Assembly: GCA_039931355.1 (NCBI GenBank)
Contig: JBDTSD010000007.1
Location: forward strand, 314 to 64,313
Source of the DNA: Ginsengibacter sp.
GTDB lineage: Bacteria; Bacteroidota; Bacteroidia; Chitinophagales; Chitinophagaceae
Direction: 5' to 3'
DNA: 64,000 nucleotides
The position numbers and the translations under genes are program-made. The notes beneath the pieces are model-generated. The model did not search any database, was not told the DNA's origin, and saw only the letters and a program-made list of their open reading frames with translations. Position 1 is the stretch's first letter, and each line of letters starts with the position of its first letter. Positions 9,408-51,264 of this stretch are shown here, one piece after another.

Positions 9408-9582
9408 TAGCCGGTCCCGGTGTTTTGAAGCAACATTTATTCTCTCTCTCTCTCTTTCTTACTGATCATCACTTGTGCATTTATTGTCCAAAAAATGATG
9501 AGAATCATAAACTCATTTGATTTTCATTTTGATCTATAACAGATTAAACAACTATCTCTGTATTCATCAAAAATTGTTTTTT

Positions 9583-12336
9583 ATGAAAAAAAATATAGCA
9601 CCCGCGAAGTATGTATATTTCTTCGGAGGTAATAAAGCAGACGGTAATGAATCTATGAAAAACCTGCTGGGCGGCAAAGGGGCAAACCTGGCTGAAATGG
9701 CGGGTCACCCAAAACTGCGATTACCTGTTCCGCCGGGTTTTACCGTGACCACAGATGTATGCACCTATTATTACGAAAATAAAAAAACATACCCGGGTGC
9801 ATTAAAGAAACAAGTGGAAGAAGCGATCGCCAAAATGGAAAAGCTTACCGGTAAAAAGTTTGGGGATGAGAAGAATCCATTACTTGTATCCGTACGTTCA
9901 GGTGCCCGGCGCTCAATGCCCGGAATGATGGAAACAGTATTAAATGTAGGGCTAAATGAAAAAACCATCAAGGGAATCATCGCACAAAGCGGCGACGAGC
10001 GTTTTGCTTATGATGCCTATCGCCGGTTGATCATGATGTATGCGGATGTGGTGATAGAAAAAGGCGGTGGTATAGAAATAAAAAACGGAAAAGGCATTCG
10101 CAAAATGCTGGATGAAAAGCTGGGGGATGTCAAGAAAAAGAAGGGATACACCAGTGATACAGATCTTACCGCAGCCGAACTAAAAGAACTCGTAAAAGAT
10201 TACAAGCAAAGTGTAAAAAAATTATTGGGTACAACTTTTCCGGATGATCCCTGGGAACAACTTTGGGGTGGTATTGGCGCTGTGTTCAGTAGCTGGAATG
10301 GAAAAAGAGCGGTGGAATATCGCCGGATTGAAAAAATTCCGGATGAATGGGGAACAGCCGTAAATGTGCAGGCAATGGTATTTGGAAATATGGGTACCGA
10401 CAGTTCTACCGGGGTCGCTTTCACACGAAATCCTGGTACCGGAGAAAATAAATTTTATGGAGAATACCTGGTGAATGCCCAGGGTGAAGATGTGGTGGCA
10501 GGAACCCGCACACCAGCCCCGGTGAATGAATATTCAAAAAATTCACAAAGCAAACAATTCAAAACACTGGAAAAATTAAAGCCTGCTTTATACCAGGAAT
10601 TATACGGCTACCAGAAGAAACTGGAGAAGCATTATAAAGATATGCAGGATATTGAATTCACCATTGAGCAGGGGAAACTGTATATGCTGCAATGCCGGGT
10701 AGGTAAAAGAAATGGCATTGCTGCAGTAAGGATGGCAACAGAAATGTATGCTGAAAAACTCATTGATGCAAAGACAGCTATCATGAGGGTTGGCCCCAAT
10801 CAACTGGTGGAATTATTACTGCCGATGCTTGATCCAAAAGCTGAATTATTAAATACAGTAATTGCAAAAGGACTACCTGCAGGCCCCGGTGGCGCCAAGG
10901 GCCGCGTCGTATTTACTTCCAATGATGCGGTAGAGTGGGCACATAAGGGAGAAAAAGTAATCCTGGTTCGCGAAGAGACCTCACCGGAAGATGTGGATGG
11001 CATGCATAAGTCCGAGGCCATCTTAACTTCAAAGGGTGGCATGACATCGCATGCCGCGCTGGTAGCAAGAGGCTGGGGCAAATGCTGTATCGTTGGTTGC
11101 GGCGATATTGAAATACACCATGACACCAAAACATTTCATGCAAAGAATGGCGTAATAGTTAAAGAGGGAGATCTTATCACATTAAATGGAACCCGGGGAT
11201 TAGTATATGAAGGCAGTTTGCCATTAGTGGCAATTGACCTGGATAAAAACCAATCCTACAAAGATCTTATGAAACTCGTTGACAAAGTGAAGGATATGGG
11301 AGTTCGCACCAATGCAGAAACACCCGGTGATGCAATGCAGGGATTAAAATTTGGTGCAGAGGGCATCGGCTTGTTCCGTACTGAACACATGTTTTATGGA
11401 GAAGGAAGCGTACAACCACTGTTCCTGCTGCGCAAAATGATCGTTAGCAAAACAGAGCCGGAACGAAAAAATGCGTTGAATGAACTATTTGTTTATGTAA
11501 AGAAGGATATCAAAAACACCCTGAAAGTAATGAATGGCCACCCTGTTACCATTCGTTTATTGGATCCACCATTGCATGAATTCGTTCCGCATGATGCAGA
11601 AAAACTTCATCAATTGAGCAGGGAGCTTGGTATCAGTATGGGCCTGTTGAGGAGAAGGGTGTTGGCATTGCATGAAAATAACCCTATGCTTGGACACCGG
11701 GGAGTTCGTTTAGGAGTGAGTTACCCGGAAGTCACAGAGATGCAGGTGAGGGCTATACTTGAGGCAACGGCTGAACTGATTAAATCCGGCAGGAAAGCGT
11801 TCCCCGAAATAATGGTGCCGGTGACATGCACGGTAAATGAATTGATTCACCAGAAAAAAATCGTTGACAGGGTATATAAAGAAGTATGCGAAAAAACAAA
11901 AATGAAAAGCATACCTTATCTCTATGGTACCATGATTGAAATACCCAGGGCAGCCATACGAGCTGACCGGATGGCGGAAGTTGCAGACTTCTTTAGCTTT
12001 GGAACAAACGATCTCACTCAAATGAGTTTTGGCTTCAGCCGCGACGATATAGGTGGATTTTTACCAAATTATCTTGACCTGAAATTGTTGAAGGACGATC
12101 CTTTTCAAACTATTGACCAGGATGGCGTGGGTGAACTAATAAAATTAGGAACCGAAAGGGGACGTAAGACCAAACCAAACCTCAAAGTCGGAATCTGCGG
12201 AGAACATGGTGGCGATGCCGAAAGCGTAAAATTCTGCCATCGCATTGGAATGAATTATGTAAGCTGCTCGCCCTTCCGCGTGCCTATAGCAAGACTGGCG
12301 GCCGCACAGGCAACAATAGAATTTCCCAGGAAATAA
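9583..12336 (+). CDS. ppdK: Pyruvate, phosphate dikinase (start placed at ATG 9583)
   Basis: LGGKGANLAEM, VSVRSGA, GGMTSHAALVARG (phospho-His), SFGTNDLTQ, ICGEHGG. Confidence 0.97.
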   Translation: MKKNIAPAKYVYFFGGNKADGNESMKNLLGGKGANLAEMAGHPKLRLPVPPGFTVTTDVCTYYYENKKTYPGALKKQVEEAIAKMEKLTGKKFGDEKNPLLVSVRSGARRSMPGMMETVLNVGLNEKTIKGIIAQSGDERFAYDAYRRLIMMYADVVIEKGGGIEIKNGKGIRKMLDEKLGDVKKKKGYTSDTDLTAAELKELVKDYKQSVKKLLGTTFPDDPWEQLWGGIGAVFSSWNGKRAVEYRRIEKIPDEWGTAVNVQAMVFGNMGTDSSTGVAFTRNPGTGENKFYGEYLVNAQGEDVVAGTRTPAPVNEYSKNSQSKQFKTLEKLKPALYQELYGYQKKLEKHYKDMQDIEFTIEQGKLYMLQCRVGKRNGIAAVRMATEMYAEKLIDAKTAIMRVGPNQLVELLLPMLDPKAELLNTVIAKGLPAGPGGAKGRVVFTSNDAVEWAHKGEKVILVREETSPEDVDGMHKSEAILTSKGGMTSHAALVARGWGKCCIVGCGDIEIHHDTKTFHAKNGVIVKEGDLITLNGTRGLVYEGSLPLVAIDLDKNQSYKDLMKLVDKVKDMGVRTNAETPGDAMQGLKFGAEGIGLFRTEHMFYGEGSVQPLFLLRKMIVSKTEPERKNALNELFVYVKKDIKNTLKVMNGHPVTIRLLDPPLHEFVPHDAEKLHQLSRELGISMGLLRRRVLALHENNPMLGHRGVRLGVSYPEVTEMQVRAILEATAELIKSGRKAFPEIMVPVTCTVNELIHQKKIVDRVYKEVCEKTKMKSIPYLYGTMIEIPRAAIRADRMAEVADFFSFGTNDLTQMSFGFSRDDIGGFLPNYLDLKLLKDDPFQTIDQDGVGELIKLGTERGRKTKPNLKVGICGEHGGDAESVKFCHRIGMNYVSCSPFRVPIARLAAAQATIEFPRK

Positions 12337-14714: not shown

Positions 14715-15260
14715 ATGTCAATTATGTATGAAGAAAATGAAGCAACTGCTATACTCGGGAAAAGTGATGCAGCAGTTAAACATGAGAATAACAAAACAAT
14801 AAAAAAGATGATGATCATCTTATCCAAAGGAACCCTTGAAAATGTGTATGCCGCTTTTGTATTGGCAAACGGTGCAAGAATGGAAGGTATAGAAGCGGAA
14901 ATGTTCTTTACTTTTTTTGGGTTGGAGGCAATTCACAAAAAGAAACTGGAGCACCTGCATGTGGCTACTGTAGGCAATCCTGCTATGCACATGCCCACAA
15001 TGTTGGGTGGCTTGCCTGGTATGGAAGCCCTGGCTACTCACATGATGAAAAAAGAAATGGAAAAAATTGATATGCCGGATATACTTGAGTTTTTGGATAT
15101 TCTATCCGCTTCCGGTGTAAAATTATGGGCATGCAAATTAGCGATGGATATGTTTCATTACAAGAAAGAAGATTTGTATGACGGTATCGATGATGTAATT
15201 ACAGTAGGTGATTTTTATAAAGAGAGTGCAGGTGAAGGAGTGCACATGCTGTTTGTATAA
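14715..15260 (+). CDS. DsrE/DsrF/DrsH-like (DsrE2-type) sulfur transfer protein
   Basis: IILSKGTLE, FFTFFGL, KLWACKLAMDMF conserved Cys. Confidence 0.85.
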   Translation: MSIMYEENEATAILGKSDAAVKHENNKTIKKMMIILSKGTLENVYAAFVLANGARMEGIEAEMFFTFFGLEAIHKKKLEHLHVATVGNPAMHMPTMLGGLPGMEALATHMMKKEMEKIDMPDILEFLDILSASGVKLWACKLAMDMFHYKKEDLYDGIDDVITVGDFYKESAGEGVHMLFV

Positions 15261-37346: not shown

Positions 37347-37427
37347 ACCCCAAACCCCTAAAGAGGCTTAAAGCGTGTTATAAATTAATGTTCAAAAAAA
37401 CCTCATTCCCCTTTAGGGGTTAGGGGC
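37347..37427. repeat. Inverted pair of family P elements between rpsD and rpoA
   Basis: accccaaacccctaaagaggct (37347-37368) and tcccctttaggggttaggggc (37407-37427). Confidence 0.8.
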
Positions 37428-38743: not shown

Positions 38744-38764
38744 TCCCCCTTCAGGGGCCAGGGG
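38744..38764. repeat. Family P element after the rpsM stop
   Basis: tcccccttcaggggccagggg. Confidence 0.75.
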
Positions 38765-39187: not shown

Positions 39188-39231
39188 CCCCCTTTAGGGG
39201 TTCCGGGGTATCCCCCTTTAGGGGTTAGGGG
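39188..39231. repeat. Two tandem family P elements after the rpmJ stop
   Basis: ccccctttaggggttccgggg and tccccctttaggggttagggg. Confidence 0.85.
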
Positions 39232-48593: not shown

Positions 48594-49121
48594 TTGTTAG
48601 TTAAAATTCATAACGTGAACTATATTATCAAATCAATTTGTGTGGCTTTATTGTCTACAATAATTTTAAGTAATGCCTTCGGTCAACATCGTATTGAACT
48701 AAGAATAAATCCGGCTACCGGATTATTAGCCGACCCTGGTACCGAAATAGTGTTACCCGGTGAATACGTGTTGTGGAGCATAAAACCTGGCGAAAATATT
48801 AGTTGGTTTCGGATCGAAGGTGCTAATCCTCCATGCAACAACTTACCGGCCAGTGGCGGTTATTCCCGGGAGAGAGGAGATGTCAGGCCAAGAGAGCCTC
48901 GTCGCGATTGGAAGTACAGAATAATTTATGTGCTCACAACAAGTCCCGAAAGAAAACAATTAGATCCCAAAATTGCTATCCGGCCAACGAGAGACATAAA
49001 TAATTCAATATTAATGTTCTTTTTAGGAGCCATAGTTCCTTTACTAACATCTATATTATTTTACCGAAAATGGAAGGCCGCCAAATCTGAGCTTGAAAAA
49101 CTTAGTACACCAAAATCATAA
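48594..49121 (+). CDS. Hypothetical membrane-anchored exported protein (start uncertain)
   Basis: Signal-like N-terminus, beta-rich domain ending LDPKI, C-terminal TM plus RKWK. Confidence 0.6.
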   Translation: MLVKIHNVNYIIKSICVALLSTIILSNAFGQHRIELRINPATGLLADPGTEIVLPGEYVLWSIKPGENISWFRIEGANPPCNNLPASGGYSRERGDVRPREPRRDWKYRIIYVLTTSPERKQLDPKIAIRPTRDINNSILMFFLGAIVPLLTSILFYRKWKAAKSELEKLSTPKS

Positions 49122-49224
49122 TATTTGTAACTTATCAGCCAAACGCAGGTGGGTCCTGGAGAAATGTCTTGAGCTCTATAATTATCCGCAAAATACGGTC
49201 ACAAATTTCTGTTCACCATCAGCC

Positions 49225-51264
49225 ATGTGTAATAAAAAAACCTATTTCCTTTTATTAGCCTTCTGCTTATTTACCATGTACCGTGGTTTTGCACAGGATC
49301 AAAAAGTAGCTGATAGTCTTAAAATTATTTACCAGCGGGATACAGCAGAAGGCATCTCAAAGTACAATTTACTTATAGATCTTTCTTTCAATGAAGTAAG
49401 GGATTTAAAACAAGGTGTGCGGTATGCGGAAGAATTGATAAGTCTATCCCGACAGGCAGGTGACGACAAATACCTTAGTGCCGGTTATTTTTGGAAGGGG
49501 ACGAAAGAAAGATTGCTTGGCAACCTGGATACGGCGCTAAATGCACTCTTTAAAAGCGCTGAAATAGCGAAACGATCACATCTTTCTAAAAGTGAAGGAA
49601 ACGCTTATGAAGAAGTAGCAAACATTTACTCAGTCGCAAAAAACCACCAGACCGCGATGCTTTATTACAATAAAGCTATAACTGCGATGCGGCAATCTAA
49701 TGATTCAAATAGCCTGGCTTCTGCACTGGCTAACGCAGGTGATGAATTCCTTAATATTAAAAAATATGATTCTGCATTTTCGTATTTAAACGAAGCAAAG
49801 ATCATTTTCGATAATTTGAATTACCTGACTGGAAAAGTCTATTGCCTCGGTAATCTTGGTGTAGTGTATGCTAATCTTGGCAATAATGATCTTGCCGAAA
49901 AAAATATAAATGACGCCATTCGCATATTGGAAGAATCACAGGATTATTATCCAATCTGCGACTATCTTCTTCCTATGGCTGAGGTATATTCCGATAAAGG
50001 AGACATGCAGACAGCATTGAATTATGCACTAAGGAGTTTGAGCCTGGCTGACAAATACAAGTTAAAAGAACAGATTGCCAATGCTAACCTTAAAGTGTCA
50101 GAGCTATATGAAAAAATGGGAAACCTGGGCGAAGCTCTTAAACATTATAAAAATTATATAGCCTACAGGGATAGCCTTAGTAATATTAAATCCGTGCAGG
50201 CTATGTATAATTTGCAGTCCCGGTTTGATAACTCCCAGCATCAGGCCCAGGTGAAATTGCTCAATCAACAGGAAAGAAATCAGCGAAATTTATTGATTTC
50301 CCTGATGATCATATTTGGTTTAACGGTAATAACACTTGGCATCATATTGAGAAATAATAAGAGTAAACAAAAAGCCTATAAAATTTTAGATAAACAAAAG
50401 CAGGAAACAGATAAAGAAAAAGCAAAGGCGGAAGATGCGCTTAGAGAATTGCAGGCAACGCAAATGCAATTAATGCATCGCGAACGTATGGCTTCACTCG
50501 GCGAGCTTACCGCCGGCATTGCCCACGAGATACAAAACCCACTCAACTTTGTAAATAACTTTTCAGATGTGAATGCTGAGTTGTTGGATGAACTTCAACA
50601 GGAATTAAAAAAAGGAAACGTAGGTGAAGCATTATCTATTTCAAATGGCATCATAGAAAACGAGCAAAAAATAAATCATCATGGCAAGCGGGCAGATGCT
50701 ATTGTAAAAGGTATGATGCAACATTCGCGGTCGAGTACAGGGCATACAGAACCAACTGATATAAATGCATTGGCCAGTGAATATTTAAAACTCAGCTATC
50801 ACGGCCTCCGTGCAAAAGACAAAAGTTTCAATGCAACCATGGATACCCATTTTGATGAGAATCTTCCAAAAGTTAATATCGTGCCGCAGGACATAGGCAG
50901 GGTATTATTGAATTTATGCAACAATGCGTTTTACTCGGTGACAGAAAAAAAGAAGGACCCCCAGCCCCTAAAGGGGAGTGAAGAATACGAACCAAAAGTA
51001 ACAGTGACCACAAAGGCTCTAAAGCCCCCTTTAGGGGGTTTGGGGGTAGAAATTTCTGTAAAAGATAATGGCACCGGCATTCCCCAAAAAATAACTGATA
51101 AAATATTCAACCCGTTTTTCACCACCAAGCCTGCGGGGCAGGGCACGGGTCTGGGGCTATCGCTCAGTTACGACATCGTAAAAGCCCATGGTGGTACCAT
51201 TACCATCAACACCAGGGAAGGTGAATTTGCTGAGTTTATTATCCGCATTCCTGCAAATACATAA
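49225..51264 (+). CDS. TPR-sensor histidine kinase (start placed at ATG 49225)
   Basis: Signal peptide, TPRs, TM, ASLGELTAGIAHEIQNPLNF, DNGTGIP, FFTTKP, GTGLGL. Confidence 0.93.
   Translation: MCNKKTYFLLLAFCLFTMYRGFAQDQKVADSLKIIYQRDTAEGISKYNLLIDLSFNEVRDLKQGVRYAEELISLSRQAGDDKYLSAGYFWKGTKERLLGNLDTALNALFKSAEIAKRSHLSKSEGNAYEEVANIYSVAKNHQTAMLYYNKAITAMRQSNDSNSLASALANAGDEFLNIKKYDSAFSYLNEAKIIFDNLNYLTGKVYCLGNLGVVYANLGNNDLAEKNINDAIRILEESQDYYPICDYLLPMAEVYSDKGDMQTALNYALRSLSLADKYKLKEQIANANLKVSELYEKMGNLGEALKHYKNYIAYRDSLSNIKSVQAMYNLQSRFDNSQHQAQVKLLNQQERNQRNLLISLMIIFGLTVITLGIILRNNKSKQKAYKILDKQKQETDKEKAKAEDALRELQATQMQLMHRERMASLGELTAGIAHEIQNPLNFVNNFSDVNAELLDELQQELKKGNVGEALSISNGIIENEQKINHHGKRADAIVKGMMQHSRSSTGHTEPTDINALASEYLKLSYHGLRAKDKSFNATMDTHFDENLPKVNIVPQDIGRVLLNLCNNAFYSVTEKKKDPQPLKGSEEYEPKVTVTTKALKPPLGGLGVEISVKDNGTGIPQKITDKIFNPFFTTKPAGQGTGLGLSLSYDIVKAHGGTITINTREGEFAEFIIRIPANT
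50958..51046. repeat. Inverted pair of family P elements, both in frame inside the kinase ATPase domain
   Basis: cccccagcccctaaaggggag (PQPLKG) and ccccctttagggggtttggggg (PPLGGLG). Confidence 0.85.

Follow-up and report, generated by a model that had tools for sequence, protein, structure and literature searches.

Our analysis showed that a sensor histidine kinase encoded in the 64,000-nt stretch of Ginsengibacter DNA that we analysed (hereafter the window) carries two inverted units of repeat DNA, E1 and E2, in frame in its ATP-binding domain, one on each side of a native beta strand. In the view that we favour, each of the two is a solo copy of a short repeat dispersed through the genome and is probably translated passively as an extension of a surface loop. 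The bracketing of a native strand by two lone repeat copies is real, but it is an event of an already familiar kind, since many related kinases have such repeats in these two loops. The arrangement had originally been taken as a clue to an unusual propagation mechanism. This repeat family normally occurs as solo copies, so two of them in the kinase call for no special mechanism, and the kinase case by itself reveals no new one.

Repeat copies and native strand in the kinase domain

The kinase gene (positions 49,093-51,264, plus strand) was identified from the ORF listing, Pfam and matches to solved histidine kinases. Its open reading frame, read from a TTG start, encodes 723 aa (679 aa in the public protein record, which begins at a later ATG) and combines TPR repeats (TPR_12, E = 2.1e-17), a transmembrane segment, HisKA and HATPase_c (E = 3.7e-20; 72.8 bits against a cut-off of 26.4). 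The HATPase_c domain, delimited by the Pfam match and an AlphaFold2 model (residues 598-721; 50,884-51,255, plus strand), contains both E1 and E2. It follows the HisKA helix and has the N box, the G1 box (DxGxG) and the G2 box, with the histidine kinase hallmarks NNAFY, DNGTGI and GTGLGL present in the alignment, and the helix-strand-strand order of the model (mean pLDDT 71.7) is that expected for a Bergerat-fold HATPase_c.

Both elements were delimited by repeat searches and placed on the AlphaFold model. E1 (50,957-50,977, plus strand; ACCCCCAGCCCCTAAAGGGGA) is a sense-oriented ('F') copy of the repeat whose core, CCCCCAGCCCCTAAAGGGG, occupies 50,958-50,976 on the plus strand. It is translated in frame as D622-PQPLKG628; in the model it is part of loop 167-179, which joins the N-box helix to the beta strand after it. 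E2 (51,025-51,046, minus strand) is an antisense ('R') copy; its plus-strand sequence, CCCCCTTTAGGGGGTTTGGGGG, is the reverse complement of the minus-strand reading CCCCCAAACCCCCTAAAGGGGG. It is translated in frame as K644-PPLGGLG651 and makes up turn 189-195 of the model, a beta-hairpin turn that precedes the G1 box (DNGTGI) and in which residues 191-193 have a pLDDT below 50. The sequence and the open reading frame at 49,093-51,264 thus bear out the original observation of two inverted elements in frame within one kinase domain, and the model places each of them in a loop, as had also been proposed. An inverted-repeat search returned two arms of 19 nt each, 84% complementary and 49 nt apart; between the two cores we counted 48 nt, where 46 bp had been given before.

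The match of E1 and E2 to the repeat is not due to chance, as core counts, genome-wide counts and codon probabilities show. The 12-mer core CCCCTAAAGGGG, with at most one mismatch, occurs seven times in the window against 0.24 expected, and the pattern CCC-N3-5-CCCC-N3-5-GGGG has 226 overlapping matches genome-wide (about 107 non-overlapping) against four in the reversed control. With the peptides held fixed and the codon usage of the genome applied, the exact codons found have probabilities of 6e-5 (E1) and 1e-5 (E2). All synonymous positions of E1 are identical in five kinases from two species, compared with 50-65% in the rest of the domain. E1 and E2 are repeat DNA and not motifs selected in the protein.

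The spacer between them (50,978-51,024, plus strand), delimited from the paralogue alignment and the model, encodes SEEYEPKVTVTTKALK, the beta strand between both loops (residues 180-188 of the AlphaFold model). Alignment with 13 paralogues from the same genome opened two separate gaps, of five extra residues each, and the spacer peptide YEPKVTVTTKA is homologous to YxPxVxVxTK in ten uninterrupted paralogues. As had been supposed, then, the spacer is native HATPase sequence and the doublet was not inserted as one block. The net gap is 15 nt per site for an element of 19-22 nt, so simple insertion fails to explain the junctions, a point that counts against our preferred reading.

The spacer of this gene is more similar to that of element-bearing than of element-less kinases (0.61 versus 0.54), an excess that the remainder of the domain does not share (0.67 versus 0.68) and that no other 45-nt window of the 75 equals, in a mosaic test whose basis is one 45-nt spacer and a set of non-independent sequences. 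This excess, being specific to the spacer, shows that the E1-strand-E2 segment has its own shared history inside the kinase family, and indicates that it is now inherited or converted as a block.

The repeat family and DUF559 nuclease genes

The repeat has the architecture C4-N3-C4-(3-5 nt loop)-G4 in a unit of 19-22 nt, and a position weight matrix of 69 copies reads A-CCCC-TAN-CCCC-TRAA-GGGG. Most copies (74 of 107) lie outside long ORFs. Outside genes the repeat mostly adjoins stop codons in the sense orientation: 36 of the 74 non-coding copies do so, against 4.6 expected at random. Core searches located in the window the inverted doublet that had been noted between genes, a convergent pair at 37,349-37,427 with a degenerate F copy (37,349-37,367) and an R copy (37,408-37,426). 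They also found a solo copy with the loop TGAA that adjoins the stop codon of a minus-strand gene (38,745-38,764, minus strand) and two tandem copies in the same orientation (39,188-39,231, minus strand), and a repeat scan added two GAA-loop variants that form a convergent pair within the nuo region (2,225-2,374; F at 2,225-2,240, R at 2,353-2,374).

Inverted pairs are convergent in 13 cases genome-wide and divergent in one, a bias that is genuine and explained only in part. The interiors of 15 doublets are unrelated, sharing matches of 9-12 nt (chance level), and in the kinase, as in most other doublets, the partners have a different N3 and C-runs of unequal length (CAG versus AAA). Single copies fold into stems of 4-5 bp with energies of -3 to -6 kcal/mol, no better than shuffles, and the E1...E2 RNA reaches -40.1 kcal/mol (z = -2.8). 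The position weight matrix of the 69 copies has no T-run after the hairpin, and no Rfam family matches anywhere in the window. For solo copies we found neither a recent empty/filled pair nor a target-site duplication, and the junctions in thymidylate synthase, the kinase and LeuRS show no visible duplication either.

The same repeat is the terminal inverted repeat of small cassettes that encode a DUF559 nuclease (Vsr-like PD-(D/E)XK; PF04480, E = 1.9e-37 to 5.4e-29). Such cassettes lie in frame within LeuRS and an IcmF-like mutase in this genome and within a MetH-like protein in relatives, and the block that distinguishes filled from empty LeuRS alleles is F-DUF559-R. All three DUF559 copies of this genome are flanked by the repeat. 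Among 30 DUF559 loci across the order, most have F upstream and/or R downstream, about a dozen have both elements in the F...R order and two have them in the reverse order; at random sites a repeat copy would be expected within 400 nt about 2% of the time. A free DUF559 cassette, whose protein on contig C8 has 127 aa, is syntenic in three species, where the neighbouring proteins are 74-80% identical and the flanking repeat copies are kept at syntenic positions, with only N3 and the loop varying; comparison of the three gave no direct sign of current or recent mobility of this cassette. A literature search for DUF559 as a mobile element returned nothing relevant. By analogy with known nuclease-repeat pairs (see below), DUF559 is probably involved in keeping or renewing the repeat.

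Age of the kinase copies and alternative readings

In the genus set of kinases, 11 have both elements, three have E2 only, two have E1 only and 76 have neither, and in the public set at least 15 proteins combine E2 with a first loop of native length, E1 alone being found in two or three. Judged from these sequences, E1 and E2 are separable, each occurring without the other, and in the genus set they change together in 4.6 of 5 independent contrasts. The E1 allele and the 13 bases that follow it are identical in a kinase of another species (G010), and alleles with identical flanks are present in G000 and G010. Elements occupy both loops in dozens of Bacteroidota kinases, which come from Chitinophagaceae and, more distantly, a Draconibacterium MAG, and occupied loops are found as well in named MAGs of several families. 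At the E2 site different hairpins occur (CCGCCACGTGGCGG, CTCCGCTTTATAGCGGAG, CCTCCGCCTCTTGGCGGAGG) that retain the hairpin-N-G-run architecture; in several related kinases E2 is decaying or has given way to other hairpins, and in some E1 is decaying. Taken together, these comparisons show that the kinase copies are old and that different species have them in common.

On a tree of 92 kinases that is poorly resolved (49 of 89 branches open), a single clade of all E1+E2 kinases is not rejected (AU p = 0.21); with this resolution, descent from one E1+E2 ancestor is inseparable from repeated gain or conversion. The shared alleles, the widely occupied loops and the AU result together suggest that the peptides are ancestral to a kinase subfamily. 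They do not appear ancestral to the kinase family as a whole, most members of which have neither motif. Of the original proposal that the two halves were added separately on either side of host DNA, separability is thus upheld by the single-element kinases; that the additions took place in this gene is contradicted by the E1 allele already present in the G010 kinase and by the dozens of kinases with occupied loops.

Two independent and recent insertions in this very gene, one per side of the strand, would account for the two separate gaps and the native spacer, for the existence of single-element kinases and for the lack of both elements in the nearest neighbour on the domain tree (L045_1750, support 96). 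We nevertheless regard them as very unlikely, with the E1 allele and its following bases shared by another species, a spacer that carries the signature of other element-bearing kinases, the co-variation of E1 and E2 across the family and the occupation of both sites across families. Insertion of the pair as one REPIN- or MITE-like block, or template switching on E1 that gave rise to E2 as its inverse copy, is barely credible. Where copies of the repeat are paired, they are typically convergent doublets, and at ValRS the entire F-spacer-R segment is missing from most relatives, but single-element kinases speak against both routes. A block is further contradicted by the paralogue alignment, in which the kinase is longer by only 10 residues in all and uninterrupted kinases align across the interior, and by the mutually unrelated interiors of the 15 doublets. 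Template switching was rejected on the differing N3 and C-run lengths of the partners, and a MITE reading of the doublets on their unrelated interiors and the absence of visible target-site duplications.

That PxPLKG and PPLGGLG might be Pro/Gly loop features of a kinase subfamily at the protein level, with an incidental resemblance to the repeat, is suggested by their recurrence at fixed positions in many kinases and by their location in loops, where Pro and Gly are common. This explanation is highly improbable and close to refuted: the codons are exactly those of the repeat, loop 1 uses two reading frames of the same element (PLTPEG and PxPLKG), unrelated peptides (SPPPRGGAGG, SPLYSGAGR, NPPPLGGGRGA) stand at the same site over DNA that is still palindromic, and most family members lack both motifs. 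We consider it unlikely that the copies are kept for a function of the nucleic acid, either as a polar gene-end signal (C-rich, of Rho or processing type) or, for a convergent pair, as a long stem in mRNA or single-stranded DNA, so that the kinase pair would be selected and not junk. The invariant synonymous sites of E1, the syntenic retention of the copies around the free DUF559 gene in three species, the excess at sense stop codons, the stability of the E1...E2 RNA and the 13 to 1 ratio of convergent to divergent pairs all argue for such a function. Against it stand the decay of E2 in several kinases and of E1 in some, the missing T-run and Rfam match, the single hairpins no stabler than shuffles, and the harm that a terminator within a coding region would do unless masked by translation.

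Related systems and a possible history of the repeat

The GTAG- and CGTC-tagged repetitive extragenic palindromes (REPs) lie mainly 3' of ORFs between co-directional or convergent genes, often supply the stop codon and often form inverted pairs; occasional copies lie in frame within ORFs, in some cases at a position shared by homologous genes (Di Nocera et al., 2013; PMC3733652). The kinase repeat resembles them as a short dispersed palindrome that is mostly extragenic and 3' of ORFs, forms inverted pairs and is in some cases in frame. It differs in having no GTAG or CGTC tag (69-copy position weight matrix), in its stem of 4-5 bp with a second C-run ahead of it, and in flanking DUF559 nuclease genes instead of Y1-transposase genes. 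The genome has seven PF01797 Y1-transposase genes, none of them with a C4...G4 hairpin within 1.2 kb, and with no repeat copy around all seven an association of the REP/RAYT type was rejected. The palindromic elements of Rickettsia (RPEs) are units of some 100-150 bp that insert in one piece. They too lie in frame in functional genes (Ogata et al., 2000, via PMC3733652 and PMC10969869). In both cases repeat DNA in a functional protein-coding gene is read as an extra surface peptide; the kinase repeat differs in its short unit of 19-22 nt and in the native coding sequence enclosed between two such units. Intragenic REPs and RPEs are the nearest known kind to the present case. REPINs are said to have been described by Bertels and Rainey in 2011 as REP doublets that form hairpins. 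What replicates in a REPIN is the whole doublet, spacer included, and it is linked to a RAYT. The kinase pair shares the two inverted units, the short spacer and the possible long hairpin, but the interiors of the 15 doublets are unrelated, host sequence fills the interior in the kinase, and a link to a RAYT was looked for and not found.

For the nuclease link the closest parallel is Ssn, whose genes are flanked by hairpin repeats of 20-50 nt (NTS/SRM) that are also dispersed in the genome, and for which cleavage of single-stranded DNA adjoining the hairpin has been demonstrated (Chenal et al., 2025; PMC11893778). DUF559 is likewise a small single-domain nuclease gene with a dispersed hairpin repeat on both sides. 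The Ssn fold is GIY-YIG (cd10448), in contrast to the Vsr-like PD-(D/E)XK fold of DUF559, and the Ssn motif is unlike the kinase repeat in sequence.

For the propagation of the repeat we infer the following course. Each loop would first have been hit separately in an ancestral kinase, E2 probably before E1, since E2-only kinases are common. Descent, together with short-tract gene conversion among the many tandem paralogues, may then have spread or maintained the module. The repeat itself would be kept intact or renewed at the DNA level, because different hairpins occupy the same site and synonymous sites are conserved. Upkeep of this kind would probably involve the associated nuclease and not a RAYT transposase, on the analogy of Ssn and its hairpin repeats. 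A bolder extension, which we think quite unlikely, is that convergent F...R pairs may mark the ends of nuclease-triggered repair tracts, the host DNA between them being copied as a cassette among paralogues or alleles; E1-strand-E2 would then be host coding sequence mobilised by a DUF559-associated repeat system. If true, it would explain why the orientation bias is 13:1, why E1 and E2 are gained and lost together, why the spacer has a separate history and why hairpins turn over at fixed sites.

The kinase illustrates how repeat units as short as about 20 bases can be built into a protein for good: here they sit in two tolerant loops of a widespread signalling domain and, once settled, may travel with the host sequence between paralogues. 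The link between a repeat family that adjoins stop codons and the small nuclease DUF559 offers a testable parallel to Ssn nucleases and their hairpin repeats. For annotation, the repeat accounts for odd Pro/Gly-rich loop insertions in many Bacteroidota kinases and housekeeping enzymes.

Two in-frame repeat copies in a sensor kinase

The sensor kinase ORF at 49093-51264 (723 aa; TPR repeats, HisKA and HATPase_c) contains two inverted copies of a dispersed repeat, both in frame: E1 (CCCCCAGCCCCTAAAGGGG, 50958-50976), read as DPQPLKG, and E2 (CCCCCTTTAGGGGGTTTGGGGG, 51025-51046), read as PPLGGLG. They form inverted arms of 19 nt that are 84% complementary; the doublet described in the original prediction is real. 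Its further claims, that two separate gaps enclose a native spacer and that the doublet was not inserted as a single block, were borne out by an alignment of 13 paralogues from the same genome across the catalytic half of the kinase. Ten paralogues have the short form EKKK-x5-YxPxVxVxTKK-x4-VEI, the window kinase and C150_9549 carry both inserts, and C10_51511 and C128_664 carry the second only; each gap amounts to +5 residues and the strand between them is homologous throughout. In an AlphaFold2 model of a 268-aa query (mean pLDDT 71.7), E1 falls in the loop that follows the N-box helix (residues 167-179), the native spacer forms strand 180-188 and E2 makes the hairpin turn that precedes the G1-box strand (189-195), which places both elements in loop or turn positions, as had been proposed. 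Given the peptides, the exact codons have chance probabilities of 6e-5 and 1e-5 under genome codon usage; the inserts are accordingly repeat DNA rather than protein-selected loop motifs. In the C150 kinase (9549-10367), an unrelated second hairpin, TCCCGAATTCACTTCGGGA, is nested in the E2 loop and extends the turn to PPSEPVPNSLREGLG.

Composition and placement of the repeat

The 12-nt core of the repeat occurs 7 times in the window, compared with 0.24 expected. In the 5.1-Mb draft genome (38.7% G+C, 365 contigs), the pattern CCC-N3-5-CCCC-N3-5-GGGG gave 226 overlapping matches against 4 for a reversed control, and 107 non-overlapping copies. A position weight matrix built from 69 copies confines conservation to a unit of about 20 nt, A-CCCC-TAN-CCCC-TRAA-GGGG, with none outside it; single copies fold weakly. 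In 34 of the 107 copies N3 is itself a stop triplet, and in 69 the loop starts with TAA or TGA. Two element stops 7 nt apart close two of the three frames and leave one open per orientation, which explains why sense-oriented coding copies read only as P-x-P-L-K-G or P-L-T-P-K-G, and antisense ones only as P-P-L-G-x-x-G. Outside long ORFs lie 74 of the 107 copies, and in 36 of these the C-rich end falls -15 to +12 nt from a stop codon on the sense strand, where random intergenic placement would give 4.6 (at most 10 in 200 trials); the ORF often terminates at one of the stops of the element itself, with distances near -14 or -7. Of the genomes sampled, 12 of 24 from the genus contain the repeat, as does 1 of 16 from other families. 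The surroundings of the Y1 transposase genes in the genome contain no copy, and on the features tested the family does not fit the definitions of REP/RAYT, REPIN, RPE and MITE elements. Some copies form tandem arrays of fixed period, five at 37 nt and three at 27 nt (C82 4995-5161, C2 20156-20228, C95 ~15215-15252), and a run of CCCCAA repeats precedes one copy on these contigs.

Inverted neighbours within 700 nt are convergent, with C-rich ends outward, in 13 cases and divergent in one. Doublet interiors are mutually unrelated. Spacings concentrate around 105-140 nt, and no pair is tighter than that of the kinase, at 49 nt. The habit of lying in sense orientation after stop codons accounts for part of the convergent bias; the coding-region pairs (kinase, ValRS, MetRS) fall outside this explanation. 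ValRS (C60 5166-7916) has an in-frame convergent doublet before ATQRPET, MetRS on C15 an in-frame solo copy plus a doublet, a FadB-like dehydrogenase an in-frame copy, and thymidylate synthase a clean +9-residue in-frame insert, TPPNPLKGE (the last three jointly at C15 30861-33053, C15 34759-37191 and C23 22911-23732). The entire F-spacer-R segment of ValRS (sense copy, spacer, antisense copy) is absent from most relatives, and block insertion therefore does occur elsewhere, though not in the kinase. The nuo region (2225-2374) also contains a convergent pair, made up of GAA-loop variants; the second copy falls within the predicted 5' end of an ORF of 175 aa.

Age and history of the kinase segment

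Among 92 kinase domains of the genus, 11 carry both elements, 3 E2 only, 2 E1 only and 76 neither; the best public homologues include about 45 with both, at least 15 with E2 and a native-length first loop, and 2-3 with E1 only. The proposal that the halves were added separately stands in part: kinases with a single element show that the halves are separable, but the age and spread of the event and alleles common to a second species, G010, show that the additions did not take place in this particular gene. Two E1 alleles, CAG...AGTGAAGAATAC and TAT...CAACAAGAATA, are shared with G010, each with identical following bases, and in five kinases with shared alleles every E1 residue that is identical also has an identical codon, a match that drops to 50-65% elsewhere in the domain. 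In several kinases the E2 copy is decaying. Occupied loops are spread over several families, a Draconibacterium MAG among them; at named MAG loci the loop 1 element is read in two different frames, and the E2 site holds quite different hairpins (CCGCCACGTGGCGG, CTCCGCTTTATAGCGGAG, CCTCCGCCTCTTGGCGGAGG) that keep the hairpin-N-G-run layout. The two loops are thus sites of long occupancy, and their occupants are probably renewed or exchanged. Other short inserts that recur at kinase loop 1 in related loci (CQAEPVEAG, LPAGQAG(SAGQ), SENSIS and ACAERSRSAV; loci L029, L031, L035, L038 and L013) suggest that further repeat families use it; LPAGQAG, encoded by the palindrome-like CTGCCTGCCGGACAGGCAGG, is present also in MetRS on C15.

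With the loop columns omitted, the kinase domain tree takes a star-like form in which 49 of 89 branches are open, and element-bearing kinases are scattered over it, with 12 changes per element. A single clade of the 11 kinases with both elements was not rejected (AU p = 0.21). Of 5 independent contrasts, 4.6 show a joint change of E1 and E2 (p ~0.06, as low as the power of the test allows). The window kinase's 45-nt spacer has an identity of 0.61 to element-bearing spacers versus 0.54 to element-less ones (Mann-Whitney p = 0.001, on rows that are not independent), compared with 0.67 and 0.68, respectively, for the rest of the domain; this excess is unmatched in 75 other 45-nt windows, the next highest of which adjoin E1 and E2. 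On these comparisons, we read the E1-strand-E2 segment as having a separate history. The spacer signal is most likely caused by short-tract conversion among tandem paralogues, but an old module persisting while the remaining domain was homogenised would produce the same signal. A natural setting for paralogue conversion is found on G010 contig C11 (~228000-276000, L028-L030), where about twenty paralogous kinases form one tandem array, with elements in some only.

Known systems and DUF559 cassettes

REPs lie mainly downstream of ORFs and often supply stops, and some are in frame inside genes, at times at the same site in homologues (PMC3733652), and RPEs occur as in-frame repeats inside genes according to the summaries in PMC3733652 and PMC10969869; both are published precedents for in-frame copies. 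The event in the kinase is old, occurs widely and belongs to a known kind. Its distinctive features are the native strand enclosed by two lone ends and the movement of this segment as a block; the propagation mechanism is one that we infer.

Whole domains are also found between repeat copies. In LeuRS (C36 25237-28797, L048), a complete DUF559 domain (PF04480, a Vsr-like PD-(D/E)XK nuclease domain) lies in frame between CCCCCGGCCCCTCTCCGCAGGCGGAGAGGGG (F) and its inverted partner (R), and LeuRS alleles of three species in the genus lack the entire F-DUF559-R block, reading WVNTPL-GRRETSTMPGYAG. An IcmF-like fused mutase (C68 3-3737) has the same arrangement, its flanks being two complete palindromes of the form C4-N-C4-loop-G4-N-G4, whose translations are GLPLTPSRGGG and SSPSPGGGRG; in relatives, the cassette also occurs in a MetH-like protein, identified by sequence motifs. 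Most of 30 DUF559 loci across the order have F 40-110 nt upstream and/or R after the domain, with lineage-specific hairpins; both elements stand in F...R order at about a dozen and in reverse order at two. The nearest experimental parallel is that of the Ssn nucleases, whose genes are flanked by dispersed hairpins that Ssn cuts (PMC11893778), although the fold differs and a functional pairing of DUF559 with the repeat is putative. A free DUF559 gene on contig C8 (127 aa) is likewise flanked by F and R elements; this cassette is syntenic in the genome carrying the window (G000) and in two other species (G001, G004), and its flanking elements are conserved except for N3 and the loop, while neighbouring proteins are only 74-80% identical.
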